NCBI GenBank assembly: GCA_964493205.1 | Contig: CAZBMJ010000002.1 | Location: forward strand, 50,238 to 114,237 | DNA length: 64,000 nt | Source of the DNA: an uncultured Myxococcales bacterium | GTDB taxonomy: Bacteria > Myxococcota > UBA727 > JABDBI01 | Reading direction: 5' to 3' | Part shown: positions 1 to 61,156 of the stretch, piece by piece | How the letters are laid out: each line of letters starts with the position of its first letter | Numbering within the stretch: position 1 is the first letter of the stretch | The notes under the pieces: generated by a model | Seen by the model: only the letters and a program-made list of their open reading frames with translations | Database searches by the model: none | Told to the model about the DNA's origin: nothing | Translations under genes and position numbers: made by a program

Positions 1-605
1 ATTCTTTTACATAAATTTACATAACTTAAATATTCTGAAGTAGTAAAAGATTTTTCTTGTTTAGTTTTCTTGTCTTTATATGTTATAACATAATCTCTTT
101 TAGTAGATAAAACTTTTTTTATTATATTTATTTTATAAGGAGCAACATTTTGATCTTTTACTGCATCCTTTACACTATAAGTATATACAACTTTTAATCC
201 TAAAAGTTCTTCTATAGTTTTTATTTTAGAATATCCTTTAGGATAAGTTCCTGTCATACCTATAATTTTATTATATTTTATTTGAGATATATATTCATAA
301 TAAGGAAGTGTTAATCTATGAATTTCATCTAATACAACAAGATCAAAGTCTTTATTAGTATATTTTTTTAGAGATTGATAGCATATAACTTCTATATTAA
401 GTTTTATATTCCATTTTTCTACTTCTTCCTGTACTCCATTAATATTTACTGTATAAGGAACTACCCAAAGAACTTTTATTAGTTTTCTTTTTTGAGCATA
501 ATCTAAAATACAATACGTTTTTCCACTTCTAATAGACTTTATAACAAGACATTTCTCACAACTATCTAAACTTTCTTGACATTCAACTTGTGCTTTTGTT
601 AACAT
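1..605 (-). CDS. SF2 (DExH) helicase-like ATPase, N-terminal part; the gene runs off the window start. It is not in the ORF track because it is incomplete.
   Basis: Hand translation of the minus strand from ATG at 605-603 gives MLTKAQVECQESLDSCEKCLVIKSIRSGKTYCILDYAQKRKLIKVLWVVPYTVNINGVQEEVEKWNIKLNIEVICYQSLKKYTNKDFDLVVLDEIHRLTLPYYEY... Walker A-like SIRSGKT is followed ~60 aa later by motif II DLVVLDEIH. The open frame continues to position 1. Confidence 0.55.
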   Translation of the reverse strand, partial: MLTKAQVECQESLDSCEKCLVIKSIRSGKTYCILDYAQKRKLIKVLWVVPYTVNINGVQEEVEKWNIKLNIEVICYQSLKKYTNKDFDLVVLDEIHRLTLPYYEYISQIKYNKIIGMTGTYPKGYSKIKTIEELLGLKVVYTYSVKDAVKDQNVAPYKINIIKKVLSTKRDYVITYKDKKTKQEKSFTTSEYLSYVNLCKR

Positions 606-942
606 ATGTATTTAATGCTAAATCAATTATTCTATTACTTTTATCATGTCCTATATCATAATTTTCTATAACTAAATTATTTATATTACCACAATAAAAA
701 GGATATAAAATATTTTTTTGTTTCATTTTACCTAATACGAAAAATAGTATAGGATCAGGAACATTTTCTTTTAATACATGTTCTTTAAGATAAGGAATAG
801 TTACACCTGTATAACCTCCTCTTGCTGCCGCATTACTTGAAGGTGTGTCTAAAATTTTAAGAACTTCAGAATAACCCATACTACCTTGTACTGTATCAGT
901 AAAATAATCTATTAGTTTTTGTTCAATTTCCTCTATACTCAT
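583..942 (-). CDS. Hypothetical protein (119 aa). Its 3' end overlaps the helicase start by 23 nt.
   Basis: Complete ORF in the track. No recognisable motif. Confidence 0.4.
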   Translation of the reverse strand: MSIEEIEQKLIDYFTDTVQGSMGYSEVLKILDTPSSNAAARGGYTGVTIPYLKEHVLKENVPDPILFFVLGKMKQKNILYPFYCGNINNLVIENYDIGHDKSNRIIDLALNTYVNKSTS

Positions 943-1345
943 GGTATTTGGTTTTAATAATTAATTTTTTTGATTTTCTAATTTTTTTAATGAATTCTCT
1001 ATCTGTAGCAGTTTTTGGATTAAAAAAATAAAGAACATTTGTATCTCTTTTTTCTTTATTAAATTTAATAACAAAATTTAAATTATCTTTAGAAACTTCT
1101 TTAATACTGGTTTTAGAATAAGCTTCCAAAATAGAGTCAATATTATTAGGGTATTTCTCATCTTCACAACGATTTAAAATTGATGAAATAATTAAGTGTT
1201 TGTCTATAATAGGACAATCACCACACTCTGCTTGTAATACAGAAGCTAATAATATATCTTCATTAGAAACACTCGGTTCTCTAAAAGAATAATTACTAGC
1301 TTCTGTACTAAAAAATAAAAATATTACTATATTTAATAACTTCAT
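923..1345 (-). CDS. Secreted or exported hypothetical protein
   Basis: N-terminal hydrophobic signal-like segment MKLLNIVIFLFFSTEAS. 4-nt start/stop overlaps with both neighbours. Confidence 0.45.
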   Translation of the reverse strand: MKLLNIVIFLFFSTEASNYSFREPSVSNEDILLASVLQAECGDCPIIDKHLIISSILNRCEDEKYPNNIDSILEAYSKTSIKEVSKDNLNFVIKFNKEKRDTNVLYFFNPKTATDREFIKKIRKSKKLIIKTKYHEYRGN

Positions 1346-1629
1346 ACTTTTACACTTAAATGTTTATTAAGAAATTTATGTAAATATATAAAAAAGAACA
1401 CTGTAACATAAATAATTATTAAAGAGCTAAATATCAATGCGTCTTTTGATTCATTAAAGCTTTCTGTAATCATTAATACTGTGAAAAAAATTATTAAACT
1501 AATTATTGACCATATAATAATTATACCTTTTAAAATTCTTAGTGTAATGTCATAATAGTCAGTTAACCCCCAATAAATAAGAAATATTAATATAGGTAAA
1601 TAAAGAAATAAACTTCCTGGTATTTTCAT
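1342..1629 (-). CDS. Small two-TM membrane protein; member 1 of a tandem paralog family
   Basis: N-terminus MKIPGSLFLYLPILIF and C-terminus FLNKHLSVKV are shared with ORFs 2375, 2679, 3077 and 3430. Confidence 0.5.
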   Translation of the reverse strand: MKIPGSLFLYLPILIFLIYWGLTDYYDITLRILKGIIIIWSIISLIIFFTVLMITESFNESKDALIFSSLIIIYVTVFFFIYLHKFLNKHLSVKV

Positions 1630-2159
1630 TTTTTAATTTTTATAGGTTTATCAATAAAACTAATATCTACTTCAAATTGTTCTTCTTTAGCAGAAGGATT
1701 CCATTCATTACTTTGTGACTTAGGAAACTCTAAAAAGCTATTATCTTCTGTTTTAGGAGCTTCTAAAGCTAAAGGAAACTCTTTATTAAGAAATAATTTA
1801 ACTTCGCTTAAAGCAGCTAATCTGCTGTCTAATTGCAATTTAGATATGTTACCCATAGCTGTTTCTATAATAAGATTTTCAATAGCTCCATCAAAAGCTT
1901 CATACTTTCTGTTTATTGCGTCTTCTTTCTTTTCTTTATCTGTTCTAAAATCAATACTTATATAAGCATCTCCTGCAAATGAAGAAAATTCTAATACTAA
2001 ATATACCATTAAAGAATTAAGAGCTAATACTGATAAAGTTCCAAAAGCTGTTTCAGGTTTACTAATAAAAAGTAAGTTTACAAGAACTATTCCTGCAAAT
2101 CCTATAAGTTTTCTAAAATAGTTTTTAGAAAATAAATCTGTTTTAAAATTTCTCATCAA
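1626..2159 (-). CDS. Hypothetical membrane-associated protein (177 aa)
   Basis: Hydrophobic N-terminal half followed by an acidic C-terminal half. ATGA overlap with the downstream gene. Confidence 0.45.
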   Translation of the reverse strand: MMRNFKTDLFSKNYFRKLIGFAGIVLVNLLFISKPETAFGTLSVLALNSLMVYLVLEFSSFAGDAYISIDFRTDKEKKEDAINRKYEAFDGAIENLIIETAMGNISKLQLDSRLAALSEVKLFLNKEFPLALEAPKTEDNSFLEFPKSQSNEWNPSAKEEQFEVDISFIDKPIKIKK

Positions 2160-2412
2160 GATATCTATTTAATTTAGGTAAATTCTGAAAAAATAATCCA
2201 ACAATTGATAATACAAGTATAAATAGTTGCATCTCTATAAATAGCCTTTGAAATAGTTCTAAAACACTTAAATTTACTTGTGGACTAGCTGTACCTTTAG
2301 TAAATCCACCTATATAACTATAATATGTAACGGTTAAATATATAGGAACTAATATAAGTAACCAAAATTTAGTACTACCCTTCATGCTTTTTAATTGTAA
2401 AATAGTGATCAA
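2143..2412 (-). CDS. Small membrane protein (89 aa)
   Basis: Two predicted hydrophobic helices. Overlaps neighbours by 17 nt and 38 nt. Confidence 0.4.
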   Translation of the reverse strand: MITILQLKSMKGSTKFWLLILVPIYLTVTYYSYIGGFTKGTASPQVNLSVLELFQRLFIEMQLFILVLSIVGLFFQNLPKLNRYLDEKF

Positions 2413-2677
2413 AAAATAAAGTTATAAAATATAATAGAGAAGGTAACAAAAATAAAATAATTATAGTTGAAAAATCTTTTTTTATTAAATTTATTATATC
2501 AGTATAATTTTTAATTTTATAATCTTTTATAAGCTCTGAACCTGATATAAGCATTCCAATTGATAAAATTACATATGAAATTGAACCTATAATTTTAACA
2601 GTATAAGGAGCATTTATATATGCCATATATATTCCAAATAAAATTACTGGAATCCAAAAAAACCATCTACCTTTCAT
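2375..2677 (-). CDS. Small two-TM membrane protein; paralog family member 2
   Basis: N-terminus MKGRWFFWIPVILFG. C-terminus ...FTIKKHEG. Confidence 0.5.
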   Translation of the reverse strand: MKGRWFFWIPVILFGIYMAYINAPYTVKIIGSISYVILSIGMLISGSELIKDYKIKNYTDIINLIKKDFSTIIILFLLPSLLYFITLFFDHYFTIKKHEG

Positions 2678-2678
2678 T

Positions 2679-3080
2679 TTAATTAAGTTTAATTGTTAAA
2701 TGATTATCTAAAAATTTAAAAAGCATCATTAATACTGTATAAGGTAATTTAATAATCATTAAAATTAAAAATCCTGTTTTATAAAATATATTAGGATGAT
2801 GTATAACTCCTTTTAATATATCAATCTCTACATCTATATCATCTTCTCTACGTATATGTTCTATATCAGATTCTAATGTATTTTTTGATGCTATTTTTAC
2901 TAAAATATCAGATTCAATTGCACGATTAGGATATACACTTGCATAAATATGAAATATACAACTAAGACTAATAATAATATGTATACTTCCTAATACTAAT
3001 AATGTATTTGGATAATAACTCCATAAATACCATAATGCCCATATTATTAGAGGGATAATTAAAAAATATCTACCTTTCAT
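2679..3080 (-). CDS. Small two-TM membrane protein; paralog family member 3
   Basis: N-terminus MKGRYFLIIPLIIWAL. C-terminus FLDNHLTIKLN. Confidence 0.5.
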   Translation of the reverse strand: MKGRYFLIIPLIIWALWYLWSYYPNTLLVLGSIHIIISLSCIFHIYASVYPNRAIESDILVKIASKNTLESDIEHIRREDDIDVEIDILKGVIHHPNIFYKTGFLILMIIKLPYTVLMMLFKFLDNHLTIKLN

Positions 3081-3433
3081 ACTTTAATAGTTAAATGTTT
3101 GTTTAAAAATCTATTTATAACTATTATTAATAAATTAATTAAAATTAAAATATTAAATCTTGTAATAATTATATTAGATAATTGAAAATGATTATTTCCT
3201 CCTTTAAAATAAAAAATCATAGCATTACTTCTATTGTTAAAAGTATCATCATAATTATATTTATAATCATGTGAAAAACTATAACAAAAATAAATAATAG
3301 AAAAAATAGAGTATAAAAATAATAATACACCTCCTACTACTTTTAATGATTCTATAGGTATTGATGATAATATTGAAATTAAGGTCCATAAAATTATTGG
3401 AATCCATAAAAAATAACTTCCTTTAATTGTCAT
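3077..3433 (-). CDS. Small two-TM membrane protein; paralog family member 4
   Basis: N-terminus MTIKGSYFLWIPIILWTL. C-terminus FLNKHLTIKV. Confidence 0.5.
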   Translation of the reverse strand: MTIKGSYFLWIPIILWTLISILSSIPIESLKVVGGVLLFLYSIFSIIYFCYSFSHDYKYNYDDTFNNRSNAMIFYFKGGNNHFQLSNIIITRFNILILINLLIIVINRFLNKHLTIKV

Positions 3434-3726
3434 ACTTCAACTGTTAATTTTTTGTTAATATATATAAGTATATCTATTATCCATGCAATAGGTCGTAGTG
3501 TAAATAAATCTAAAGGTGACTCTGGTAATTTATCGAAAGTTCCTCTAAGTAATACTTCTATAAGCATAGAAAATGCTAATGTAAAAATTGATACAGGAAT
3601 AATTTCCCATGTTAATTCTATTTGTTCAATACTACAAACTATAAAATCATAATTAATATATCCTATCCATAATAAAATAGGAACAATTAAAAATATTATT
3701 CCTGGTATTTTAATTTTTTGTCTCAT
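3430..3726 (-). CDS. Small two-TM membrane protein; paralog family member 5
   Basis: N-terminus MRQKIKIPGIIFLIVPILLW. C-terminus INKKLTVEV. Confidence 0.5.
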   Translation of the reverse strand: MRQKIKIPGIIFLIVPILLWIGYINYDFIVCSIEQIELTWEIIPVSIFTLAFSMLIEVLLRGTFDKLPESPLDLFTLRPIAWIIDILIYINKKLTVEV

Positions 3727-3762
3727 ATTTAATTGTAAAAATGTTTGTGAAAAAATAAATTG

Positions 3763-4140
3763 TTAGTAACCTTCATAATAGTAAATTGTATATTGATTAG
3801 AAAATAATTTATGAAATATAATTTCGTTAGATTTAACTGTTATTTCATATTGTGTACCATCTCCCCATGCTCTATATACTTTTTCATTTTTTACATCTTT
3901 TTTATCAGTTATAACATACATTTTTATACGTTCTCCTGTATTATGATGTATTACACTATCATAAATATTTATTATATTTACTCGTAGATATCTAGGAGTT
4001 ACTAAAAAATTTTCTTGATACGCTAACGATGTACTTATATAGTTTTGTGTATTACCTATTATAGGTAATAGTAATAATAATAAAATTTTAAATTGTTTCA
4101 TATTTGACGATTTGATTAATAATCTTATAACACTCATCAA
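3763..4140 (-). CDS. Secreted hypothetical protein. The true start is probably the internal Met at ~4101.
   Basis: Signal-peptide-like MKQFKILLLLLLPIIGNTQ begins at residue 14. The upstream extension overlaps the polymerase C-terminal ORF. Confidence 0.45.
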   Translation of the reverse strand: MMSVIRLLIKSSNMKQFKILLLLLLPIIGNTQNYISTSLAYQENFLVTPRYLRVNIINIYDSVIHHNTGERIKMYVITDKKDVKNEKVYRAWGDGTQYEITVKSNEIIFHKLFSNQYTIYYYEGY

Positions 4141-4960
4141 TATACCATTGACGATTTAAATTTGGATATCTTTCTTTTTCTTTAATAATACGTTCTCCTT
4201 TTTTATAATCATATATATCTATTTTAGGTACATTCATTAGTAATGTAACAGGTGTTTGTGCCTGTACTGCTTGTATTGTACCTACTCTTTTTCCTCCTGT
4301 CCATAATTGAGATATAGTTTGAAAACCTCCAGCATAATATCTTATAAATCTACCATCAAATAACTCTGATGTAGCTACACCCTTATCAGGATGGTATTCT
4401 GTTAACATCCATTTATAAAGTTTACTTCCATTATTTCCATAACAAAACTCATGAATATTGTTTTCTTCATTAATAGTATCTTCTATAGGTATTCCTTCTA
4501 TGAAGAATTTCTTTAATGCTTTAGGAATTACTAAGGCACTAAAATCTTTATGATATTCTCCTGATTTTAGTAAATCATCATAATCTTGAAATATGTTTTT
4601 AGTTTTTATATTATTATATGTATCAATAGCTAAATAATTATTAACATCTTTGATAACCATTTTAGTATATTCTACATATTCATAAGGTATATCATCTATT
4701 TCTGTTAATTTATCAAATAAACTTATTGCTAAATCTAATTCAGATCTTTTTATTATAAAAGTAAGACCATCTGTATTAAACTGTAATGGATAAAAATGTG
4801 ATAAGTTAGATTCTAACATATCTACCATCATAGTTAACGTAAGCATACCATTAACAGTTGTACCTATAGTTGCTTTAGTATCATATAGAAAACTATATTC
4901 GCTATTTCCTAACGTATTGTTATCTCTAAGGCTCTTTATCCTTAGATTCTGCACTTTCAT
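4088..4960 (-). CDS. Family B DNA polymerase, C-terminal fragment (motif C plus thumb)
   Basis: YDTKATIGTTVNG resembles the Tx2GR region and LQFNTDGLTF resembles motif C (DTDS-like), downstream of motif B which ends the upstream ORF. A YYAGGF segment is also present. Confidence 0.6.
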   Translation of the reverse strand: MKVQNLRIKSLRDNNTLGNSEYSFLYDTKATIGTTVNGMLTLTMMVDMLESNLSHFYPLQFNTDGLTFIIKRSELDLAISLFDKLTEIDDIPYEYVEYTKMVIKDVNNYLAIDTYNNIKTKNIFQDYDDLLKSGEYHKDFSALVIPKALKKFFIEGIPIEDTINEENNIHEFCYGNNGSKLYKWMLTEYHPDKGVATSELFDGRFIRYYAGGFQTISQLWTGGKRVGTIQAVQAQTPVTLLMNVPKIDIYDYKKGERIIKEKERYPNLNRQWYIDECYKIINQIVKYETI

Positions 4961-5052
4961 TATAGAAGTTATATGTGCAGTCCAGACTATATCTTCATCC
5001 TATAAGGATGTTCCTTTTTCGTGGATAGATTATATTCTCTATAAGAGTTTCA

Positions 5053-6186
5053 CTATCTAGTCGTTACACCTTCATTGTTTGTTAACACAATGCTTGGCTC
5101 GGTATTACTTTCTTCTAAAGCTTTCACCGAATTTAAGGAATGTTTCATATTAGATTGCTCTAATAAGCGGCTGTATCTATAATACATGTTATTTTTTTGT
5201 CTTTGTTTAGTATTTACATTAATTTTAGGATTTATATCATGAATAGTGAGAAATAATATTTTTTTATTATCACCAGCATATTTAAATTGCAATCCTTTAT
5301 AATGTTTTACACGATTATTACAACAATTAGTAATATTTTGAACTTTTAAGTAGCTAATATCTCCAGTTCTAGAATTAGTATTTCTATCTAATATAGGAAA
5401 ATATTTTGGATATTTAATAGAATACTCTTGTATATCTATTGAACTTCTAAAAGTATTAATATATTTACCAAAAGTATCATATACTTCTATATAGGGAGTT
5501 CTGTTTTCTCTTGTTTTAATAGAAGATATCTTTCTAGCTTTTTTAAGTTCTTCAGAAATTGTTTTGGGAACTTTTAAATGATCAAATGTATAACCATTTT
5601 CTTTAGTTCTATTTTTAGAAGAATCTCTAGGAGTAATATAATATATTGCTAATTTCTTATATTTTTTAGGTACATCATCTACAGTTATTTCATTATTTTT
5701 TATTTTTTTTGAATAATTTATAGAAATATTTAAAGTTTCTTTAAAAGATTGTGCTCTTTTTTTATAAACTTCTTCTGAAAATTGATAACCTCCTGTTGCT
5801 TTAATATTAATATTGTAACTAAATTTTTTAGATATACATAAGTCATCTAAATATTTTTGTTCTCTATCGTGTAAAAATTCTAAATTATTAATTATTTCTA
5901 ATATTTCAAATTTAAAAATATTTTCTCCCCATTTATTATATGAAGATTGTAAATAATAATTTTTATGTTTTCCATTTTTTAGGTCTCTAGAATGCTCATT
6001 AAATCTATCTTTAAAAGATCTTCCTGTAGAGCCTACATAAATTTTATTGTTTTTTAAATTTGTAATTTTATAAATACCAAATTTTTCAAAATTGTCTAAA
6101 TTATCTACTATCATTTTATTATTTTTTATTACCACAAAGGTAATAAAAATAATTGTAAATATAGCGTAATAATTAAATTTTAACAT
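5053..6186 (-). CDS. GIY-YIG homing endonuclease inserted between the two DNA polymerase fragments
   Basis: FGIYKITNLKNNKIYVGSTGRSFKDRFNEH matches GIY-(N10)-YVG...R...H. The ATG lies 2 nt after the stop of the polymerase N-terminal ORF. Confidence 0.85.
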   Translation of the reverse strand: MLKFNYYAIFTIIFITFVVIKNNKMIVDNLDNFEKFGIYKITNLKNNKIYVGSTGRSFKDRFNEHSRDLKNGKHKNYYLQSSYNKWGENIFKFEILEIINNLEFLHDREQKYLDDLCISKKFSYNINIKATGGYQFSEEVYKKRAQSFKETLNISINYSKKIKNNEITVDDVPKKYKKLAIYYITPRDSSKNRTKENGYTFDHLKVPKTISEELKKARKISSIKTRENRTPYIEVYDTFGKYINTFRSSIDIQEYSIKYPKYFPILDRNTNSRTGDISYLKVQNITNCCNNRVKHYKGLQFKYAGDNKKILFLTIHDINPKINVNTKQRQKNNMYYRYSRLLEQSNMKHSLNSVKALEESNTEPSIVLTNNEGVTTR

Positions 6187-6190
6187 ATAT

Positions 6191-7348
6191 TTAACTACCG
6201 TAGGAACTATTTAATATAATTTTTAAGCAATGATTAATAATAGGATGTGTTTTCTTACTATATTTTTTTCTCTCATTAAAAGTATTTAAAAGAAATTTAC
6301 CATAACTTTCACCTAAATGAGCAGGCACTCTACCATGTTTCATAGCAAAATGAGGATAATATGAAACTTTATCCCAATCTAAAATTATATATTCTTCACT
6401 ACTTTGATATATACCAGGTTTTGTACTAAAATGTAGACCTCCAGCAGCATATACTATTTCACCATCATAATAAGGAATAATTTTACTAATTTGATTTTTT
6501 AAATTAATAAGTTTTTTATTACTATCAATATTAGATTTTATACTTGCATCAAGAGTTATATTTTTATAGAAATCTAAAGCAGATTTCAATACTGGATTAA
6601 CAAATTTATATTTATTAATATATGGTAATATTACTTCAGAAATAGCTATTTTTTCATTATATGTTTTCAGTTTTTTGACATCTGTTTCACTGATATTTAA
6701 ATCATAAGATAACTGTTTAACCATATATTTTTTAGCTATATCTGGTTCTGTAGAGTTAAGAAGATCTATTTTATTAAAATCTCCAAAATCTATTCTAAGT
6801 TTAAGTAGTTCTTTTGTAAATTTATATACATCTACAGTAGTTTCTACATCATATTTACAATATTTAACAATTTCTTCATCTTGTTTTTCTGTAAGTATAA
6901 GGTCATTAAAATGATAAGGTAAATCTTTAATAGATTTCTTCCTTAAAGAAAATTCTAATTTTTTTAATGATGTAGTTTTAGCACTACGAGGTCCAAAATT
7001 ATTTATAGACATTAAATCTATAGTCTTGTTGCAAAACTCTGATTCTCTATATATGGGCCACTCAGCACCTATATACTCATCATTAAAAGCTTTTATACCT
7101 TCATTGTTTATTGAAGGTCTCTTTGTAATATAAGTTAATATATTCATATCATAAAAAGAATTGTAACCCACAAAGTAAGTATCTTTTTCTTTTATAAGAT
7201 AGTTTTTTAACTTGTCTAATTCATTTATTTGAGTTACTCCATTTACTGTCCATAGTTTAAATGTTAAATATTCCTTGTTATAAGGATCATAAAACACTAC
7301 TAGAAAGTAATTAGGATATACTTCGCAGTCTAGGAAGATTAATCTCAT
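6191..7348 (-). CDS. Family B DNA polymerase, N-terminal fragment (3'-5' exonuclease domain plus palm motifs A and B)
   Basis: Exo I IFLDCEV; Exo II-like YNSFYDMNIL; Exo III YCKYDVETT. Motif A-like LDWDKVSYYPH (DxxSLYPS). Motif B KIILNSSYGS is followed directly by the stop codon. Confidence 0.75.
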   Translation of the reverse strand: MRLIFLDCEVYPNYFLVVFYDPYNKEYLTFKLWTVNGVTQINELDKLKNYLIKEKDTYFVGYNSFYDMNILTYITKRPSINNEGIKAFNDEYIGAEWPIYRESEFCNKTIDLMSINNFGPRSAKTTSLKKLEFSLRKKSIKDLPYHFNDLILTEKQDEEIVKYCKYDVETTVDVYKFTKELLKLRIDFGDFNKIDLLNSTEPDIAKKYMVKQLSYDLNISETDVKKLKTYNEKIAISEVILPYINKYKFVNPVLKSALDFYKNITLDASIKSNIDSNKKLINLKNQISKIIPYYDGEIVYAAGGLHFSTKPGIYQSSEEYIILDWDKVSYYPHFAMKHGRVPAHLGESYGKFLLNTFNERKKYSKKTHPIINHCLKIILNSSYGS

Positions 7349-8040
7349 ATCTTTCTATTTGTATATTGTAAAAATTTTATTATTTTTAATTTATCATAGT
7401 GAATATAATTATCACTTTTATTTTTATATATCCATATAAATCCTTTATATGTGTTTTTATAACCTGAACAACAAGAACTAATAGAACTTAATTTAAAATC
7501 GGGATGATCTTGATTAATTTCTTTTCTAGAAGAATATTGTTTTATAATATTTCTATTAATATCGCATTTTAAAATATAATATTTACTTTGAGAATTAGCA
7601 ATTTTTAAATAGTAATCATTTAATTCTTTTTTCGTAAATTTAGAATATCTTTCTTTTAATCTTAATCTATTTAAATTTTTAGTAGATTCTCTAACTATAT
7701 TACATTCATTACTATTATCTTCTTTACAATTATATCCATATAAAGAATTAGTTACATTATATTTTTTCATATAATGTAATTCTAACTGTTTAAGTAAATT
7801 TTCATCATATTCACTAATAGAAACTAATACATAATATTTGAAATTTTCTATACCATATTTATTTACAGAATTTAATAAATACTGATTTTCTTTCTTACTA
7901 TTATATTTAAAACATGCATTATGAGTAGAAATTCTTTGATAAATATTCTTACTCTGTCCTATATATTTCTTGTTATTTATAGTATTTTCAATACAATAAA
8001 TACCACTTTTATATCTATCTTCTTTTTTTAATTTTAACAT
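7345..8040 (-). CDS. GIY-YIG homing endonuclease
   Basis: SGIYCIENTINNKKYIGQSKNIYQRISTHN. ATGA overlap with the polymerase N-terminal ORF start. Confidence 0.85.
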   Translation of the reverse strand: MLKLKKEDRYKSGIYCIENTINNKKYIGQSKNIYQRISTHNACFKYNSKKENQYLLNSVNKYGIENFKYYVLVSISEYDENLLKQLELHYMKKYNVTNSLYGYNCKEDNSNECNIVRESTKNLNRLRLKERYSKFTKKELNDYYLKIANSQSKYYILKCDINRNIIKQYSSRKEINQDHPDFKLSSISSCCSGYKNTYKGFIWIYKNKSDNYIHYDKLKIIKFLQYTNRKI

Positions 8041-8066
8041 TATAGCATAATTTTTTATATTTTATT

Positions 8067-8315
8067 TTACCACCACCAAGAATTTAATATTGTATTAATA
8101 TTTAAGTTTATAATATCTATACTATTAATATTACCTATATATTCATATCTATTATAGTTAGTATTGTACATTATTTTATTATCTTTAGTAAATTTACTAC
8201 CATAATAATCTTGAAAGGCATATACATTACGATTTATTATATAAATAATAGCAGGTTTATTTTTATAAATAACTTCTTTTAAATGAAGATCCTTTGTTAA
8301 TTCTACCACCACCAA
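8067..8315 (-). CDS. WWW-terminated small protein, member A. The translation initiates at a non-ATG codon.
   Basis: Ends NSWWW-TAA. The ORF-caller start is TTG. No in-frame ATG precedes the family-conserved segment IYIINRNVYAFQDYYG. Confidence 0.5.
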   Translation of the reverse strand: MVVVELTKDLHLKEVIYKNKPAIIYIINRNVYAFQDYYGSKFTKDNKIMYNTNYNRYEYIGNINSIDIINLNINTILNSWWW

Positions 8316-8623
8316 TCATTTAGTTTTGTTAATAATTCAATATATCTTATATTATTAGGCACAAGTTCATAAGAATATTCATAGTTATATTTTTTATACA
8401 TTTTCTCACTATCTTGATTACCTTCTCGTTCATTTTGGAAAATAAACCATCTTCTACAAGATTTATCATAATATAACAATCCTTCGACCTTTGTTAGCTT
8501 ACTTGTTAATACTCCTATAATACAAGATACTGTAGACAAATGATTTTCTATAGTTAAATCTTTAAATTCCATAAGTAAAAATTTAAAATAAAAAAGACCC
8601 TCTGTTACGAGGGCCTTTTTCAT
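8303..8623 (-). CDS. WWW-terminated small protein, member B. The likely start is the internal Met at ~8572.
   Basis: Ends NDWWW-TAG. Contains YYDKSCRRWFIFQNE. The first 17 codons coincide with the upstream terminator hairpin. Confidence 0.5.
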   Translation of the reverse strand: MKKALVTEGLFYFKFLLMEFKDLTIENHLSTVSCIIGVLTSKLTKVEGLLYYDKSCRRWFIFQNEREGNQDSEKMYKKYNYEYSYELVPNNIRYIELLTKLNDWWW

Positions 8624-8626
8624 TTG
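8596..8626 (-). terminator. Rho-independent terminator downstream of gene 8629..9120
   Basis: Minus-strand RNA reads GGCCCUC-GUAACA-GAGGGUC followed by UUUUUUAUUUU. Confidence 0.7.
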
Positions 8627-8628
8627 GA

Positions 8629-52501: not shown

Positions 52502-52831
52502 ATGAATTTAGGGGAAATTTTATCAGAGTACATAGGGGAAGCAATAGTGGGAGGTATCTCAGCTCTGACCACTTGGTATTTTACCAAGAGGAGAGATACC
52601 GCAGAAACCAGAGTAATTGAAGCAGATGCTATTGGTAATATGCAAACAGTATATGACCACTTTGTAGCGGATACAAAAAATAAAATTGAAGAGTTAGTAG
52701 CAGAAATAGCAAAACTAACTGCTGAAGTTAGAGATTTAAGGGTTGAAACAAAACTCTTAGAAAAAGATTTAGAAGATTGTAGAAAAGGTATACACAGTGT
52801 AATAGCACCTATTAAATCAAGAAAAAATTAA
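52502..52831 (+). CDS. Holin-like protein; tentative
   Basis: N-terminal TM AIVGGISALTTWYF followed by a charged stretch and a coiled coil. Immediately upstream of the endolysin. Confidence 0.35.
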   Translation: MNLGEILSEYIGEAIVGGISALTTWYFTKRRDTAETRVIEADAIGNMQTVYDHFVADTKNKIEELVAEIAKLTAEVRDLRVETKLLEKDLEDCRKGIHSVIAPIKSRKN

Positions 52832-52837
52832 TATAAT

Positions 52838-53293
52838 ATGTATGATGAAATAGAGGAAATTTATGGTAAACCTTGTAGAGAGAGTAATCTTACATTTGCT
52901 TCTATTCCCTTTCCATTAATTATTGCGTGGGATAAAACAAAAACAACGAGAAGAATAAAATGTCACAAACTTGTAAAAGATGACGTAGAAAATATTTTTA
53001 AAGACCTACTTAGGGAGTATGGACTAAAAAAATTAGAAGAGCTTGAGATAAATGTTTTCGGAGGTTGTTACGAGTGTAGAAATATGCGCAACGGAACAAG
53101 AAAATCAATGCATTCATGGGCTATAGCAATAGACCTCAACCCGGAGAAGAATGGCTTAAAAACAAGATTTAGACAAGCGCAATTCTCAGGGCGTGAGTAT
53201 AAAAAGATGATGGACATCTTCTATAAATATGGTTGGATTAATTTAGGTAAAGAAAAGAATTATGATTCAATGCATTTTGAGAAGAAGATATAA
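52838..53293 (+). CDS. Endolysin, peptidase M15 (L-Ala-D-Glu or VanY-like) family
   Basis: SMHSWAIAIDLNPE matches the SxHxxGxAxD zinc-binding motif. C-terminal YDSMHFE matches D..H. Confidence 0.65.
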   Translation: MYDEIEEIYGKPCRESNLTFASIPFPLIIAWDKTKTTRRIKCHKLVKDDVENIFKDLLREYGLKKLEELEINVFGGCYECRNMRNGTRKSMHSWAIAIDLNPEKNGLKTRFRQAQFSGREYKKMMDIFYKYGWINLGKEKNYDSMHFEKKI

Positions 53294-53295
53294 GT

Positions 53296-53871
53296 ATGAA
53301 TAAAAATGAAAATAATTCTTGCACACACAGAGAATGTTATAAGTGCAGAGAAGTAAAAGAGTTAACACCCGAAAATTTTCATAGGAGTAAGAATAGATTA
53401 TTAGGTTTTGAATATAAATGCAAAGGGTGTTCCAAAATTAGGACTTGGAAGTTTAATGGTAAGAGGATTTTAACTGAAGAGCAAAAAGAAAGGAAAAAAG
53501 AGTTAAGCCATAAATATCATAAGACATTTAAGTATAGAGTAATGTCTTTACTTAAAGCTTATGAAACATCTGACAGAAAGAAAAATTACTATTTTAACTT
53601 AACTAAGGAAGATATAAAATTAGCTTTAGAATCAAGCTGTACTTATTGTGGGTTTCCAGCAACTGGTATGGATAGAGTAGATAATAACTTAGGCCATACT
53701 AAAGAAAACTGTGTTCCAGCTTGTATGCATTGTAATGTAGCAAGAATGGACAACTTCTCACATAAAGAGATGTTTATAATAGGAGAAGCAATAAGAAGGG
53801 TTAGGTTACTAAGACTAATTGAAGAAGAAAATAAACAATTTATAACAGGTACAGAATACGTAAGAGTATAA
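53296..53871 (+). CDS. HNH homing endonuclease inserted in the lysis cassette
   Basis: N-terminal CxxC...CxxC zinc finger. SCTYCGFPATGMDRVDNNLGHTKENCVPACMHCNVARMD is the HNH core. Confidence 0.7.
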   Translation: MNKNENNSCTHRECYKCREVKELTPENFHRSKNRLLGFEYKCKGCSKIRTWKFNGKRILTEEQKERKKELSHKYHKTFKYRVMSLLKAYETSDRKKNYYFNLTKEDIKLALESSCTYCGFPATGMDRVDNNLGHTKENCVPACMHCNVARMDNFSHKEMFIIGEAIRRVRLLRLIEEENKQFITGTEYVRV

Positions 53872-53877
53872 CAAATA

Positions 53878-54252
53878 ATGACAGTAAAAAAAGTAAAATG
53901 GTATAACCTGTTTTGGGTTAGAATTTTAGGGGTAGTTTTAATTTTAATTTTAATTTACTTCGGGGCGACTAAAACAGTAACATATTATAACTTAAACGAA
54001 TATTTAAAAACTGAAATAGAAACCTTAAAAAAGAAGAATGTTCAATTAGATTCTCTTTACAATCAAGAGAAAGTTAAAAAAGAGAAGATAAAAATAATAA
54101 GGGAAAGAATTCAAGTTGGGGAGGATATTGAAAAAGTAAAAAAACTTCAAAAACAACTAGAAGAACTAAGAAAACAACAACTACCAAAAGTAGAAAAAAT
54201 AGAACCAGAAGAACTGAACAAATACTTTCAAGACTTACTAAAAGAAAAATAA
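53878..54252 (+). CDS. TM plus coiled-coil protein, spanin-like or holin-like; tentative
   Basis: TM WVRILGVVLILILIYFGA followed by a K/E-rich coiled coil. Confidence 0.35.
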   Translation: MTVKKVKWYNLFWVRILGVVLILILIYFGATKTVTYYNLNEYLKTEIETLKKKNVQLDSLYNQEKVKKEKIKIIRERIQVGEDIEKVKKLQKQLEELRKQQLPKVEKIEPEELNKYFQDLLKEK

Positions 54253-55278: not shown

Positions 55279-56058
55279 ATGATTGAAAATAAGTTATCAG
55301 AACTAGGAAAATTAAATAAAAAATCTTTATATTATAATTTACCTTATAATACTACTAAAGATTTAAATTTAATATTATTAAGTTATGCAAATACATCTTG
55401 TTTAGATTCAGAAGAACTATCTGTATATAAGAATTATATAAAAAAATTAACATTTGATTGTACTACTAGTAAGCCTACATTGTTTGTTAATAGTGTAAAT
55501 AAATCTATATGGGAAGAAAATAATCCTGAATGTGTAAATAGAAAGCAATGGGAAAAAATTGCTTTAAAAATTTGTAATAAGTATACAATAGAAATAGAAA
55601 AAATACCTTTAGATACTGTATGTGATATTTCTTTTGAAATAGTTAAAAAAACAATATCTTGTGAAGTTTTAACCACAATAGCTCTACAAAAAAAGCTATG
55701 TGATTTAAATATAACTATAAATAGAACTAAAGATGAATGTGCTACAGATTATAAACTTCTGATAGAAAAATATCCATCTTGTAATTTAAATAAAAAAGAA
55801 TACTTCTGTCTTATAGATAGTAACTTCTCATTTGAAATGGTATCATTAATCTACGATAATAATCTTAGTTTAGAAGTAGATTCCAAAGGCAAGGTAACTC
55901 TTATATCTCCTATAAGACGTTATAAAATACCTGATGAGTTAAAAGTAAATGATGTTATTTATACATCAGATAAACAATTCATTCATAAAATATTACAAGA
56001 CTATAATATATCTAAAAAAACTAAAGAAAATATAATAAATGAACTCAAACAAATATGA
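55279..56058 (+). CDS. Hypothetical Cys-containing protein (259 aa)
   Basis: Complete ORF. Overlaps the start of the giant gene by 20 nt. Confidence 0.4.
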   Translation: MIENKLSELGKLNKKSLYYNLPYNTTKDLNLILLSYANTSCLDSEELSVYKNYIKKLTFDCTTSKPTLFVNSVNKSIWEENNPECVNRKQWEKIALKICNKYTIEIEKIPLDTVCDISFEIVKKTISCEVLTTIALQKKLCDLNITINRTKDECATDYKLLIEKYPSCNLNKKEYFCLIDSNFSFEMVSLIYDNNLSLEVDSKGKVTLISPIRRYKIPDELKVNDVIYTSDKQFIHKILQDYNISKKTKENIINELKQI

Positions 56059-59000
56059 GATTAGGATACGTGCTACCGTAAATGGTGTAGAAAAAGTTCC
56101 TAGCAAAATCACATGGATACAAGGTAATGATGAATGTTTAGCTACCCCTTGTTATAAAGAAAATGATTATTTAGTAGTTAAACTAATACCCGACTGTGTA
56201 GGTAATGCCTGTATAGAAGGGTATTTGCATTTTGATGATACGTGCACCAATTGTGAACCAGAGCATTTTAAAAGATGTTTTTGTAATACAGATGCTGATT
56301 GTCCTGATTGCTCTCAATGTGATGAGAATTATGGTATTTGTGTAGATCAATGTAAAGAAGGAGAATTCTGTAAAGATGATGCTTGTATAGAGTGTGATGA
56401 GAATACTCCTTGTCCTAATAATCAAATATGTATTAATGGTCATTGTGAATGTCCACCTAATATGTTTAAAGATGGTAATAGATGTGTTGAATGTACTTCT
56501 ACTACTAATTTAGGTAAATGTTTTGAATGTATTAATGGAGTTATTACTCCTAAATGCGATAAAGCATGTATTGAGCTTACAGGAGAATGTGTTGATTGTA
56601 TAGGTTCAGGAGATTGTTTAGATAGAACAGATGGTAAAAACTGTTGTTCTGATAATCAATGTGATTGTTGTAATGGTTTTGAATGGGATAATCTTCTTAA
56701 ACAATGTGTACCATCTTGTAATGAAACTACTTGTAATGAGTGTGAGAGATGTACTAAAGATGGTTGTCAACCAATACAATGTCCTGAAGGATATAAGTGT
56801 TATAAAGGTGAATGTGTATATTGGCCTTGTGAATCTGTATCTTGTGATAATGGAGCAGAATGTGGTCCAGAATGTGGATGTGTAGAGTTTGAAGGTGTTA
56901 AACAGTGTGTACCTTGTTATATATTAGAATGTAATGGTTTGTGTGAACAAGCATTAGGTTGTAAATGTAATGGTACAAAATGCGAATCTTCAGATAATTG
57001 TAAGGAAACTTATTGTGATAATGAGAACCCTTGCGAAGATCCTAATTGTACATGTTATGATAATAAATGTGTAGATTGTTCTAACTTTCCTTGTGTAGAT
57101 GAGGGTGGTTGCTCAAGCTATGATAATTGTGGATGTAACGAAGATAATAAATGCGAAGGTACTGGTTGTGAAGGTGGTTTAACTCTTAAAAAAGAGGAAG
57201 ATTGTACTTCTACTACAGGGTGTAAATTAAAAGCAGAGTTTTCTGTAAAAGCATGTAAATGCGATCCTATAGTATTTAAAACTAAAAATACAGTAACTTG
57301 TACATCAACTAGTGATGCTATAACTCTAAAAGTAGAATTGTTTAAAAAAGTAAATGGAGCAGATATTCCTTATAGTTCTTATAAGACTTCTCCTTATTTT
57401 GCTGATGATGAATTAGTTTCTACACAAATAAGAACTGTAGCAGAATACCAATATCTTAAAGATGGTAAATTCTACTCTTATAGTGGTACAGTGGTTACTT
57501 CTCCTATGCCTTCTACAGGTATTATGAATAATGTTATATCAAACTTAGTACTTAATAGTTCTCACATTAAGAAAACTATTACAGTAGGTGGAGTTTCTTA
57601 TCCTGCTAAAGTAACTATTAAAGTGTTTGCTGATGCAACTAAAATTCAGAATGCTAATTGTACTAAATACGAATCTACAGCTAAGATTGCTGAATATGTT
57701 TTAGACTACAGTTCAGCTCTAGCAACAACAGACACATGTAATAAAATAAATACTACATATAAAACAGAACAAGTTATTTCTGTTATAGACGATAAATCTG
57801 CTAAAAGACCTAGATTTACTTGGTATAGATCTAATACTTCTACTTTTGAAGATGATGAGTTTATATATGATGGTACATATAACGAGAGTGGATGGTTTAG
57901 AAAATCATTTGGTACTTTAGTAAGTGGTAAATGGATAGATGAAATAAATAATACAGCTAAATTTGAAGATAATTCTAAAGGTGAATTACTTTCTAATTAT
58001 AATTATTTAGTTAAAGCTGATTGTGGTTGTGGAACTAAAGTTGATAGTTTACAGAAAGTACATTTCTGTTGTCCTAAAGATTTTACATATACAATAACTC
58101 CTTGTGATAAAAAAATAGTAATTAATCCGTTTTCAGTATGTTCTATAAATGATACATTACCTACTAGTTATAGTATACCAACTGAATGTCAAGTAAAATA
58201 TAACTTAGAAGTTCTTTTAGATTCAGGAGCTGTAATTAAAAGTCAACTTCCAAAATCTGGTTTAACTAAAACATATCCAGATGCAATTGTATCTGCTAAA
58301 ATTATACAATTTAATTCAGGAGGTATATTAACAGAAGAAGATTATTGTACTTTTATGTTAACTGTACCAGAAGTAACTTTACCTACTCCAACAATTACTG
58401 TTGATTGTAATTCAGTTACTGATAAGTTTAGAGTTACTTTTACTCAAACTAGTCCTTTAAATATAGATAAAGTTGAAGTATTAGCAAATGGTATTAAACT
58501 TACTCCAGAGATTTTTAAAACAACTCCTGGGTTAACTGCTCTATATGATAAAACAATATCTAATAGTCACTTACCTACAGGAGAAGATCCGCAAGGAAGA
58601 GTTAGTGGAGTAATTGTAAAATTACAAGCTAGAGTAACATTTAGTAATGGTTGTAGTAAAATTATAGATTTAACTCCATGTAATCCTTCATTAACTGTAA
58701 CAGAGAATCCTTCAGGAGCAACTTCTAGGTTAAATTGTCCTCAAGGAGGTCAAGGTGTAGAATTAGATTCTTACTTAGAAGGATTTGATATGTCTCAACC
58801 TGTATTATTTACTATATCAGGTGGTACATTAACTGAACCTCTTACTAATGGTACAGGTACATTTACAAATTTAGGAGCAGGTACTTATACAGTAGTTGCT
58901 ACTCAAGGAGCTTTAACATCAACAGCAACTAAAACTATATTTGATGCTACTGCACCTACTGTAACTTTAACTTCTAGTATATGTCCAGGTGAAACAGGTA

Positions 59001-61156
59001 CATTAACTATTACTGCACCAGCAGGTTCTATATTTAGTGTTATGGGTCCAACAGGTTCTATATCTATACCTCCAATACCTCAATCAGGAGTATATAATAT
59101 AACAGGATTAACAGCTTCAGGTACATATACTATAACAGGAGGTATAGATAATAATAATCAAACATGCTATCCTTTTACTTGGACTGGTAATATGGTATTA
59201 GGTGGTCAAGTATTAAATCCTATATTTTCTCCTATAGCATATGGAAATTATTGTGTAGATATACCTATAGAAATTAGTATTATAGACGGTGTAAATGGTA
59301 AAATTTATAATATTGCAGCTATTTCTGGTTATATAACAGATCAAGCAGGTAATAATGTAACTCAAATGATTTCTGGTCAAACATATTTTTATACACCTAC
59401 TTCTATAGGAAGTAATGCTGTACAAATTATAAGTATAGATAGTACTTGTGATACTTTGTTAACAACACCAGTTACTAGAACTTTTATTACAATAGTACCT
59501 GCACCTAATGTATCTAATATTGTAGTGCAATGTGTAGATGGTTTATATAATGTATCTGCAACAGTAACAGTTTCTTCTGGCACTATATCTAGCGTTTTAA
59601 TATCTGGTATACCAGCTACAAATATAGGTTCTACTTATTCTGTAACAGGAGTACCTTATGTAGAAAATTTAATAGCTACAAGTTCTAACGGATGTATATA
59701 TCAAGCTATATTACCAATCGCAAACTGTAACTGTCCATCAGCTACATTAACAATAACTGGACCTATAGTACCTTTATGTGGTGATCAATTAATTACATTA
59801 ACTGCATTACCTCAATTAAATCCTAATATTGCAACAGGAGCTTGGACATATCAATGGTATGATGCAGGCCCTCCAAATTGTAATAACTGTACACCTTTAG
59901 CAATAGGTGCTCAAGGTTCTTGGGGTTCTCAACCTGTAGAATTAGTAGTAAATGCTAGTGGTAGCGGTTCATATTTTTTAAGAGTTATTAATAACTTAAA
60001 TCCTGAATGTACTTATACAAGTAATACTTATTCTTATACAGTAGATAATCCACCAGCTACACCAATTATACAACATACTCCAACAAACATAACTGTTGGT
60101 AATTCTGTAACATTTAATACTGGATATTCTAATTATTCAACGTATGCATGGTATTTAAATGGTGGAACAACGCCTGTATCAACAAATTCTACATATACTT
60201 TTACACCTACACTCTCAGGTAATTATACTATATCAGTAACTGTTAGTAATGGAAATTCTTCATGTACTGCAACTGCTTCAGACTCTTTTGAAGTTACTTC
60301 TGAATGTAATAAAATAGGAATTTTTAACGTTACAAATCCAAATACAACTTGTCCTACACAAGCTACTGTAAATTTAACTAATCCTGATAATATCTCTTTT
60401 AATTGGGTAATAGTTGCTGTAAATGAACTTACTACTAGTGATTTAGTAGGTTTAACAGGTAGTGGTACAGGTAATAGTTTTACTTTTGATTTAACAACAC
60501 CTAATACAGATCCAGGAGAGGATATAGATAATATAAGTTTTGTATTTAGTTATACTCTTATAGGAAATGAAGACTGTACACAACCACCAATTACTATACC
60601 TTGGGAGTATACTAGATGTGATAAAGGACCTGTTGATTTAATGTTAGATAATACAAGTACTTGGAGAGATATTTTTGCTACTGATTATACATTAGCTAGT
60701 TTAATATCTACTGAAACATTAGTATTTTTAACAGATATTACTATTAATACTAAAATAGGTAATAATAATACAGTGAGTAATAAAATATACTCAAATTCTG
60801 GTTCAGCTTCTCCAGAACACGAATATAGATTATATCATGATCATGCAACTACTGGTTGTACAGGAATAGATGATGATGCTAAATTTAAAACTGCGGTTGA
60901 TTCTTGGTTTGGTACTAGTAGAACAGTAACATCAACAATTGCAGATTTAGTAATAACAGTTCAAAATAGATTAAATGCTATACCAATATTATCTGGTATT
61001 GTTGTAAGTAATTCTAGTGGTAATTTAAGATTTAGTAATGTTCCTTGTGAAGTTCAACAAATAGTAGGTACAGTATTTTATACAAATTCTACAGATTGTG
61101 TATTTACTGATATTGAAAAGAAAAATGCTAGTCAATATGTTATTCCTTCTTGTTAA
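56039..61156 (+). CDS. Giant cysteine-rich repeat protein (1705 aa), probably a tail fibre or adhesin
   Basis: The N-terminal ~400 aa consist of dense CxxC/CxC EGF- or furin-like cysteine repeats (CECPPNMFKDGNRCVEC, CDCCNGFEWD...). The remainder is Thr/Ser/Gly/Asn-rich with beta-domain-like repeats (Ig-like segments). Confidence 0.5.
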   Translation: MNSNKYEIRIRATVNGVEKVPSKITWIQGNDECLATPCYKENDYLVVKLIPDCVGNACIEGYLHFDDTCTNCEPEHFKRCFCNTDADCPDCSQCDENYGICVDQCKEGEFCKDDACIECDENTPCPNNQICINGHCECPPNMFKDGNRCVECTSTTNLGKCFECINGVITPKCDKACIELTGECVDCIGSGDCLDRTDGKNCCSDNQCDCCNGFEWDNLLKQCVPSCNETTCNECERCTKDGCQPIQCPEGYKCYKGECVYWPCESVSCDNGAECGPECGCVEFEGVKQCVPCYILECNGLCEQALGCKCNGTKCESSDNCKETYCDNENPCEDPNCTCYDNKCVDCSNFPCVDEGGCSSYDNCGCNEDNKCEGTGCEGGLTLKKEEDCTSTTGCKLKAEFSVKACKCDPIVFKTKNTVTCTSTSDAITLKVELFKKVNGADIPYSSYKTSPYFADDELVSTQIRTVAEYQYLKDGKFYSYSGTVVTSPMPSTGIMNNVISNLVLNSSHIKKTITVGGVSYPAKVTIKVFADATKIQNANCTKYESTAKIAEYVLDYSSALATTDTCNKINTTYKTEQVISVIDDKSAKRPRFTWYRSNTSTFEDDEFIYDGTYNESGWFRKSFGTLVSGKWIDEINNTAKFEDNSKGELLSNYNYLVKADCGCGTKVDSLQKVHFCCPKDFTYTITPCDKKIVINPFSVCSINDTLPTSYSIPTECQVKYNLEVLLDSGAVIKSQLPKSGLTKTYPDAIVSAKIIQFNSGGILTEEDYCTFMLTVPEVTLPTPTITVDCNSVTDKFRVTFTQTSPLNIDKVEVLANGIKLTPEIFKTTPGLTALYDKTISNSHLPTGEDPQGRVSGVIVKLQARVTFSNGCSKIIDLTPCNPSLTVTENPSGATSRLNCPQGGQGVELDSYLEGFDMSQPVLFTISGGTLTEPLTNGTGTFTNLGAGTYTVVATQGALTSTATKTIFDATAPTVTLTSSICPGETGTLTITAPAGSIFSVMGPTGSISIPPIPQSGVYNITGLTASGTYTITGGIDNNNQTCYPFTWTGNMVLGGQVLNPIFSPIAYGNYCVDIPIEISIIDGVNGKIYNIAAISGYITDQAGNNVTQMISGQTYFYTPTSIGSNAVQIISIDSTCDTLLTTPVTRTFITIVPAPNVSNIVVQCVDGLYNVSATVTVSSGTISSVLISGIPATNIGSTYSVTGVPYVENLIATSSNGCIYQAILPIANCNCPSATLTITGPIVPLCGDQLITLTALPQLNPNIATGAWTYQWYDAGPPNCNNCTPLAIGAQGSWGSQPVELVVNASGSGSYFLRVINNLNPECTYTSNTYSYTVDNPPATPIIQHTPTNITVGNSVTFNTGYSNYSTYAWYLNGGTTPVSTNSTYTFTPTLSGNYTISVTVSNGNSSCTATASDSFEVTSECNKIGIFNVTNPNTTCPTQATVNLTNPDNISFNWVIVAVNELTTSDLVGLTGSGTGNSFTFDLTTPNTDPGEDIDNISFVFSYTLIGNEDCTQPPITIPWEYTRCDKGPVDLMLDNTSTWRDIFATDYTLASLISTETLVFLTDITINTKIGNNNTVSNKIYSNSGSASPEHEYRLYHDHATTGCTGIDDDAKFKTAVDSWFGTSRTVTSTIADLVITVQNRLNAIPILSGIVVSNSSGNLRFSNVPCEVQQIVGTVFYTNSTDCVFTDIEKKNASQYVIPSC

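Follow-up and report, generated by a model that had tools for sequence, protein, structure and literature searches.

A tandem array of predicted three-helix membrane proteins with conserved ends and variable cores in an uncultured, apparently crAss-like phage

The 64,000-nucleotide (nt) stretch of contig CAZBMJ010000002.1 analysed here (positions 50,238 to 114,237; hereafter the window, meaning the whole stretch) appears from its genes to derive from an uncultured, distantly crAss-like phage lineage with a guanine-plus-cytosine (GC) content of 21-33%, and it carries a tandem array of small genes between those for replication proteins. Sequence comparison identifies six of these genes (E, D, C, B and A, and the divergent F) as members of an unnamed family of small membrane proteins that belongs to no known family; its members are predicted to be three-helix proteins of 80-145 amino acids (aa). 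Between strains, whole units are gained or lost at the gene start, gene cores are replaced, and nonsynonymous changes occur in clusters. The kind is familiar, being that of the fast-evolving small membrane proteins of phage accessory regions, and what is unusual is the architecture of two conserved ends around a replaceable core, with gene units gained and lost at the junctions. By analogy with known systems, we tentatively read the array as a set of superinfection-exclusion-type membrane conflict proteins, expressed early or in the middle of infection, and give this reading a probability of about 0.4.

All genes in the first 20 kilobases (kb) of the window lie on the minus strand, and GC content there is only 21-24% (21% in the array stretch). 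The module reads as follows in the direction of transcription.

4088-4960, minus strand: C-terminal piece of the DNA polymerase gene polA, 290 aa
3763-4101, minus strand: S, small secreted protein at the head of the module, 112 aa, with the signal-peptide-like N-terminus MKQFKILLLLLLPIIG
3732-3755, minus strand: probable relic of a lost family member, in the spacer between S and E just before the ATG of E
3430-3726, minus strand: E, family member ("E-type"), 98 aa
3077-3433, minus strand: D, family member, 118 aa, with the top family-profile score within the window
2679-3080, minus strand: C, family member ("C-type"), 133 aa, its helices 2 and 3 joined by a long acidic loop
2375-2677, minus strand: B, family member, 100 aa, beginning MKGRWFFWIP and ending FFDHYFTIKKHEG
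2143-2385, minus strand: F, divergent member, 80 aa, MKGSTKFW ... LPKLNRYLDEKF
1626-2156, minus strand: G, partner with two transmembrane (TM) helices, not a family member, 176 aa
1342-1629, minus strand: A, family member between G and H, 95 aa, the sequence used for the AlphaFold2 model
923-1345, minus strand: H, predicted exported SleB-like hydrolase, 140 aa
583-942, minus strand: I, conserved, function unassigned, 119 aa, MSIEEI...GGYTGVT, last in the module before a ResIII-type helicase gene

Beyond I, the public contig continues with the ResIII-type helicase and then DnaB. An earlier note, made from the letters of the window, had described E, D, C, B and A as a head-to-tail array of five paralogues packed with overlaps of 1-4 nt. 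The five open reading frames (ORFs; 98, 118, 133, 100 and 95 aa) do exist on the minus strand, and an independent gene caller applied to the public contig gives an identical gene set. The packing holds for the junctions E/D and D/C, which like G/A and A/H are 4-nt ATGA overlaps, but C/B is a 1-nt gap; B/F overlaps by 11 nt and F/G by 14 nt. The five genes do not form one uninterrupted run, as F and G intervene between B and A.

To measure similarity within the family, Smith-Waterman local alignment scores were expressed as z values against composition-preserving shuffles. Over the full length, the linked pairs among A-E reach z = 5-13 (D-A 13.0, D-C 10.4, D-B 9.3, E-A 8.2, C-B 7.4). The signal lies at the two ends: z rises to 9.1 for the N-terminal ~15 residues (motif MK.KG..F.WIP) and to 9.3 for the C-terminal ~11-15 residues (motif FLNKHLTIK), and the cores taken by themselves give -1.4 to 2.7 among A-E, which is no significant similarity. 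A profile built from the five genes and searched against 1.84 billion representative proteins matches 16 further clusters from end to end, all of 93-145 aa and all carrying both terminal motifs. Residues G5 and P12 do not vary among 24 sequences and F8 hardly does, and against a 21-sequence profile that includes all five of them, E, D, C, B and A score E-values of 1e-19 to 1e-25. A word-indexed search with D alone returned only D itself.

The earlier note had allowed that the shared termini might be compositional artefacts with no alignable core. The core is indeed unalignable, but the termini are no artefact, because the five-gene profile finds 16 further full-length clusters with the same termini. 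The broader form of this doubt, that AT-rich DNA yields pseudo-ORFs rich in Ile, Leu, Phe and Lys that merely resemble membrane proteins, draws on the 21% GC of the stretch and on the lack of significant similarity between cores. It is effectively refuted by the retention of the termini in 45 collected sequences from at least nine phage types, and the conserved gene order and overlapping starts and stops, the confident structural model described below, the agreement of the independent gene caller, and the short and unconserved ORFs of the opposite strand all count against it as well; we regard it as extremely improbable.

F and G accompany the array as conserved neighbours. F-like genes are conserved, mostly single-copy and have two clear hydrophobic segments. 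F matches the family hidden Markov model (HMM) weakly in the window (E-value about 0.2) and better in relatives (9.5e-5 and 0.004), and a six-sequence F-like profile aligns end to end with the family profile in hhalign (probability 94.4%, E-value 8.6e-8). We therefore treat F as a divergent sixth member, a link made by profile-profile comparison only. G, in comparison, was ruled out as a seventh member (z < 1, family HMM E-value 3.3). It is predicted to have two TM helices, a helical hairpin and an acidic tail, and its motifs LEFSS and DFR(T/S)E are invariant. G is present in every locus examined, and its conservation far exceeds that of the members (13 columns are invariant in 11 clusters).

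The earlier note had given each protein two hydrophobic helices. Hydropathy instead indicates three, and so does the AlphaFold2 model of A (24-sequence alignment; predicted local distance difference test score, pLDDT, 86), with helices at residues 6-22, 26-57 and 63-91. The variable core comprises helix 2, the following loop and helix 3.

Conservation of the ends could act at the level of the protein or of the DNA. At most conserved residues the choice among synonymous codons is free (Gly GGT 14, GGA 11; Pro CCT 14, CCA 8; Asn AAT 8, AAC 5), and for this reason we favour selection at the protein level. Codon use is skewed, however, at the C-terminal Leu-Thr-(Ile/Val)-Lys, with Thr encoded by ACA in 20 of 21 cases, compared with a fraction of 0.51 genome-wide, and Leu by TTA in 20 of 22, compared with 0.59; these counts come from related, non-independent sequences and are only suggestive. 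The skew could reflect a nucleotide-level constraint or recombinational homogenisation of the junctions. A stronger version of this idea is that the conserved feature is mainly a nucleotide element, a junction of ~50-80 nt made of one 3' end and the next 5' end and serving translational re-initiation or recombination, with the peptides secondary. The junction repeats can be recognised at the DNA level, with 65-80% identity, and the gain or loss of a unit between two relatives (L024 and L010, below) falls exactly at a junction, both of which fit such an element, as does the skew. Free codon choice at the other conserved positions speaks against it, as do the non-independence of the codon counts, the absence of the motif TTAACARTTAAA from the other gene starts in the window, and the presence of the N-terminal motif in the first member of each array, which has no member upstream. 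We consider it very unlikely that the nucleotide element is the main conserved feature.

Related loci were reached through contig look-ups with family members and with G, and we counted eight further phage-type loci, leaving out strain variants of the window's own phage. In all loci but L003, the common order is polA, S, a variable number of members, F, G, a second variable number of members, H, an I-like gene, the helicase and DnaB. The numbers are as follows.

Window: four members before F, one copy of F, one member after G
L007: four members before F, two copies of F, three members after G
L012: five members before F, one copy of F, two members after G
L010: two members before F, one copy of F, none after G
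L024: three members before F (one frameshifted), one copy of F, none after G
L021: two members before F, one copy of F, none after G
L016: three members before F, one copy of F, none after G
L014: three members before F, F not found, none after G
L003: no members before F and no F, three members after G (G, then the members), with no adjacent hydrolase

Copy number, which the earlier note had proposed to compare among related phages, thus ranges from 2 to 7 when F is set apart. Positional subtypes are common to diverged phages, the E-type standing first in several arrays, the C-type usually just before F (L007_d, L012_e and L016_c are positional orthologues of C) and the f-type after G. The "local amplification" of the earlier note is only partly supported: because the subtypes span diverged phages, most of the duplications are old rather than local and recent. 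S has positional homologues in L010, L012, L014 and L016 and matched no family in the library searches. In the L003-type phage (138.5 kb, with G and three members), a stretch of ~35 tiny ORFs of 46-75 aa, arranged head to tail mostly with 4-nt overlaps, sits just upstream (L003 positions 1-6250; also in L004, L005, L006 and L013); among strains of this type it varies by insertions and deletions and by mostly nonsynonymous single-nucleotide polymorphisms (SNPs).

The mode of change is visible between near-identical strains. L007 and L009 are 99.8% identical over 1.7 kb, and in the member downstream of G the first 63 nt and the last ~60 nt are kept around a core of ~230 nt that is unrelated between the two; no donor of the swapped core was found. 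L024 and L010, at 93-97% identity, are exactly one C-type member apart; the breakpoint falls within the ATGAAAGGAAGAT that both have at the gene start, and the extra member (L024, 4049-4500) is frameshifted into ORFs of 119 and 39 aa. L021 and L024 have flanks that are 86-88% identical, and most of the array between them is unalignable. In the window itself, the 36-nt spacer upstream of E encodes ..NNLFFHKHFYN followed by a stop, resembling the C-terminus KFFHKHFTINAK of L012_a, the member that comes next after S in L012, and this spacer is probably the relic of a lost member of that type.

Point substitutions show a similar concentration. Over 6802 compared positions the window and L018 show 44 SNPs. 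The family genes cover 24% of this sequence and hold 28 of the SNPs (binomial P = 3e-8), which cause 22 amino acid changes. Gene E accounts for 17 nt and 14 aa differences, 12 of them within the 30 nt at 3565-3594 in the second helix, and A for 10 nt and 7 aa differences. G carries four SNPs, all synonymous, and the polymerase fragment (4088-4960) and the adjacent GIY-YIG endonuclease ORF (5053-6186) carry none. Three origins were considered for the patch of 12 substitutions in E and rejected: a compensated frameshift, as the two sequences are unrelated by a shift; mutagenesis by a diversity-generating retroelement, as the changes, judged by eye, are not adenine-specific; and gene conversion from a paralogue, as no donor occurs among all fetched sequences. 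With variable copy number, gain and loss of units, core replacement and clustering of nonsynonymous SNPs, the "fast-evolving host-interaction locus" of the earlier note is well supported.

These data bear on the possibility that the array has a structural role outside any conflict, its products acting as subunits or as chaperones in a membrane complex built around G. The complex would insert, position or restrain H and S so that the envelope is remodelled during replication, and core variability would reflect relaxed constraint. Such a role would suit the conservation of G, F and H, mostly in single copy, beside the array, the positional subtypes kept across phages and the strong constraint on the termini, as expected for docking surfaces. 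Yet 12 substitutions within 30 nt and the swap of a whole core between near-identical strains exceed relaxed constraint, and a copy number of 2-7 indicates that no fixed stoichiometry is needed, and we think a structural role distinctly unlikely.

The genomic setting links the array to replication. A strong terminator-like hairpin on the minus strand at 8625-8586 (17 pairs followed by a T-run), the sole such site on the coding strand within 1-9000, probably marks the start of a polymerase-array-helicase transcription unit. Because no terminator-like site occurs on the coding strand from 8586 to 1 and most genes overlap, the array is apparently co-transcribed with the polymerase and helicase genes. 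A scan for sigma-70 promoters stayed at chance level (89 found, 84.6 expected).

The other neighbour of consequence is H, which combines a signal-peptide-like N-terminus with a SleB/Hydrolase_2-like cell-wall hydrolase domain and whose start overlaps the stop of A by 4 nt, an arrangement of translational coupling. H of the window scores 18.1 bits against Pfam PF07486, under the gathering cut-off of 27 bits, and matches phrog_14642 (endolysin, E-value 3e-8) and TIGR02869 (E-value 2e-7). Among its positional orthologues, those of L010 (42.7 bits) and L016 (35.2 bits) lie above the PF07486 cut-off and that of L014 (21.9 bits) below it, and H of L007 has no match to PF07486. Six H sequences, compared by eye, share an invariant Glu within an E-C-x-x-C motif, which we take to be the catalytic Glu. 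In eight of the nine phage types, all except L003, the gene immediately after G or the array is H.

This neighbourhood raises the alternative that the members are regulators of H of the holin, antiholin or pinholin type. By acting on membrane energisation or permeabilisation, they would set the moment at which H is released or activated and so constitute a second lysis system. Class I holins, such as lambda S105/S107, are proteins of ~100 aa with three TM domains, an N-out, C-in topology and a charged cytoplasmic C-terminal tail; their genes lie beside that of the endolysin in the late lysis cassette, and they open lethal, timed holes in the membrane. The array proteins resemble them in length (95-133 aa), in their three hydrophobic helices and basic C-terminal tail, and in a gene position immediately upstream of, and translationally coupled to, that of a muralytic enzyme; the signal-peptide-like start of H would, moreover, call for a membrane trigger rather than a large hole. 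They differ from class I holins in having multiple diversifying copies, two to seven being unusual for holins, in an orientation that is ambiguous by charge and in the lack of homology to any named holin family: 24 members matched no holin family in Pfam at E-values up to 1, nor in PHROGs or NCBIfam, and the PHROG matches obtained are marginal and not to lysis families. The array also lies in the polymerase-helicase operon with no terminator-like site to separate it, and the L003 type has members and G with no adjacent hydrolase. Finally, a separate late cassette at 52.5-54.3 kb of the window provides an endolysin with weak holin-like and spanin-like candidates.

52502-52831, plus strand: one-TM coiled-coil protein, weak holin-like candidate of the late cassette
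52838-53293, plus strand: Peptidase_M15_4 endolysin (phrog_17001 E-value 2e-43; Pfam E-value 1e-9)
53296-53871, plus strand: inserted endonuclease VII/HNH-like gene, interrupting the late lysis cassette
53878-54252, plus strand: TM and coiled-coil Rz-like (spanin-like) protein, weak PHROG match (E-value 0.002)

This late M15 cassette argues against the array being the main lysis cassette or encoding the main holin. That the members regulate H in the manner of holins we rate as unlikely; if they do, these phages would have a second pathway of lysis or envelope remodelling.

We return to the preferred reading, in which the members are exclusion-type conflict proteins. The anatomy of the locus comprises small proteins that are predicted to be polytopic, suggested co-expression with replication genes, a G that is always present, a muralytic gene that is usually next, and an evolution resembling that of conflict genes, and because of this anatomy a membrane-level conflict function appears the most economical reading. 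The members would be made together with the replication genes and inserted into the cytoplasmic membrane of the infected cell. Through its conserved ends a member would insert into the membrane or dock, probably onto G, which is conserved alongside the family; specificity against changing targets would lie in the variable core. The DNA-entry machinery of competing phages would be the most likely target, with a host membrane component as a close alternative.

The analogy is with the Imm and Spackle proteins of phage T4, both of whose genes sit among replication genes, as the array lies between polymerase and helicase genes. The T4 proteins are small, located in the envelope and protect the infected cell from further infection by blocking DNA entry or the tail lysozyme of the second phage, and the array proteins may by analogy have a similar protective role; Spackle moreover concerns a phage cell-wall hydrolase, and the array is linked to one in H. 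Together with Imm, Spackle, which is made early and acts in the periplasm, blocks superinfection (PMC7677548). There is, however, no sequence or fold similarity between the two systems (no PHROG, Pfam or PDB match, and fold searches that are non-specific), the T4 genes are single-copy where arrays of 2-7 with conserved ends and swappable cores are found here, Spackle is periplasmic and soluble whereas the array proteins are predicted to be polytopic, and H is the phage's own predicted exported enzyme rather than a target tail lysozyme.

Several observations weigh against this reading. An exclusion function leaves the tight and conserved coupling to a predicted exported hydrolase unexplained, and gene order in the replication operon is the one indication that the array would be expressed early or in the middle of infection. 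Known exclusion proteins are usually single-copy, as opposed to the arrays of 2-7 found here. Hypervariability is not universal, in that the three members of the L003 type are identical among the strains compared. The orientation in the membrane is ambiguous by charge (mean K+R 5.1 for the N-terminal tail plus loop 2, compared with 4.3 for loop 1 plus the C-terminal tail), and the AlphaFold2 model of A pairs residues 2-3 with 93-94, which clashes with a simple three-TM layout. The family has no relative in Pfam, PHROG, NCBIfam, PADLOC or PDB sequences, and the fold-library searches, being non-specific, gave no fold relative of known function. Near-noise PHROG matches were obtained to phrog_16065 and phrog_13405 (E, E-value 0.0017; A, E-value 0.078); these are likewise small phage membrane proteins, but the matches cover different members and the annotation is at most "membrane protein".

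A neighbouring possibility is that the members are anti-defence or host-takeover factors, each paralogue binding and neutralising its own inner-membrane protein of the host, for example a membrane defence effector, a transporter or a protease. The evidence of diversification is the same as for exclusion and sequence alone does not separate the two; the position among replication-stage genes and the tiny tandem ORFs just upstream in the L003 type, typical of accessory or host-takeover regions, also agree with it. No match was found in PADLOC or to a known anti-defence family, and the link to H and S points to a process in the envelope rather than to a defence target in the cytoplasm, so that a role of this kind seems to us unlikely. 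If the function is exclusion or counter-defence, the family would open a way to study how crAss-like phages, whose accessory functions are largely unassigned, compete with other phages and with their hosts.

A more speculative extension, on balance improbable but worth stating, is that the array is a combinatorial repertoire of the phage, in which the ends dock on G, the core is a specificity cassette and the junctions are recombination sites for shuffling, adding and dropping units. It would then be a cassette system for membrane-level exclusion or counter-defence with a logic like that of polymorphic toxin-immunity loci, and we know of no cassette system of this kind described for phage membrane proteins. 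In the immunity-gene arrays of polymorphic toxin systems, cassette-type recombination makes diversity, and these arrays too consist of tandem, small, often membrane-embedded and rapidly diversifying proteins beside a secreted enzyme. The present array differs in lying in the replication operon of a lytic-type phage instead of a bacterial toxin locus, and its proteins vary in the middle, flanked by two conserved ends. Phage genes for small membrane proteins are among the most poorly understood, and one unannotated family can now be traced across at least nine related uncultured phage types, with its mode of evolution (unit gain and loss, core replacement and clustered amino acid change) visible at strain level and with a layout of conserved ends and free core that is a concrete, testable design.

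Literature searches found no description of such an array, and scans of IMG/VR with the family, the C-terminal polymerase fragment and G returned nothing. A scan of Joint Genome Institute (JGI) metagenomes with G gave one locus, of the L003 type, and a tblastn search of cultured phages with G gave no match. The scan of GTDB genomes with G was empty, and therefore yields no host clue and no prophage copy.

The phage's public contig is 138.8 kb long. Its tentative assignment as crAss-like rests on the large terminase subunit TerL (phrog_6681, 7e-93), the portal (phrog_6547, 7e-71) and the major capsid protein (phrog_11589, 2e-49); the last shares 28% identity with the capsid protein of Flavobacterium phage FpV4, with further matches to Azobacteroides and uncultured phages.

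The family-A DNA polymerase gene upstream of the array is in two pieces on the minus strand, 6191-7348 (385 aa) and 4088-4960, split by the GIY-YIG endonuclease ORF of 377 aa at 5053-6186; positions 7345-8040 of the same strand hold a further GIY-YIG gene. The polymerase is a single ORF of 656-658 aa in L010, L014, L016, L021 and L024, and in L007 it is split as in the window. Rfam at gathering thresholds gave no group I intron within 1-8000, and positions 4910-5136 are 76-80% identical to intron- or HNH-adjacent DNA of crAss-like phages. Also in the replication-side module, 10049-10546 on the minus strand encodes a 165-aa two-TM protein matching phrog_944 ("membrane protein", in the moron and host-takeover category; E-value 1.5e-16). 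On the plus strand, 56039-61156 encodes a protein of 1705 aa, presumably a virion or fibre protein; it begins with ~400 residues of dense cysteine-rich repeats and continues with a long region rich in Ser, Thr and Asn.

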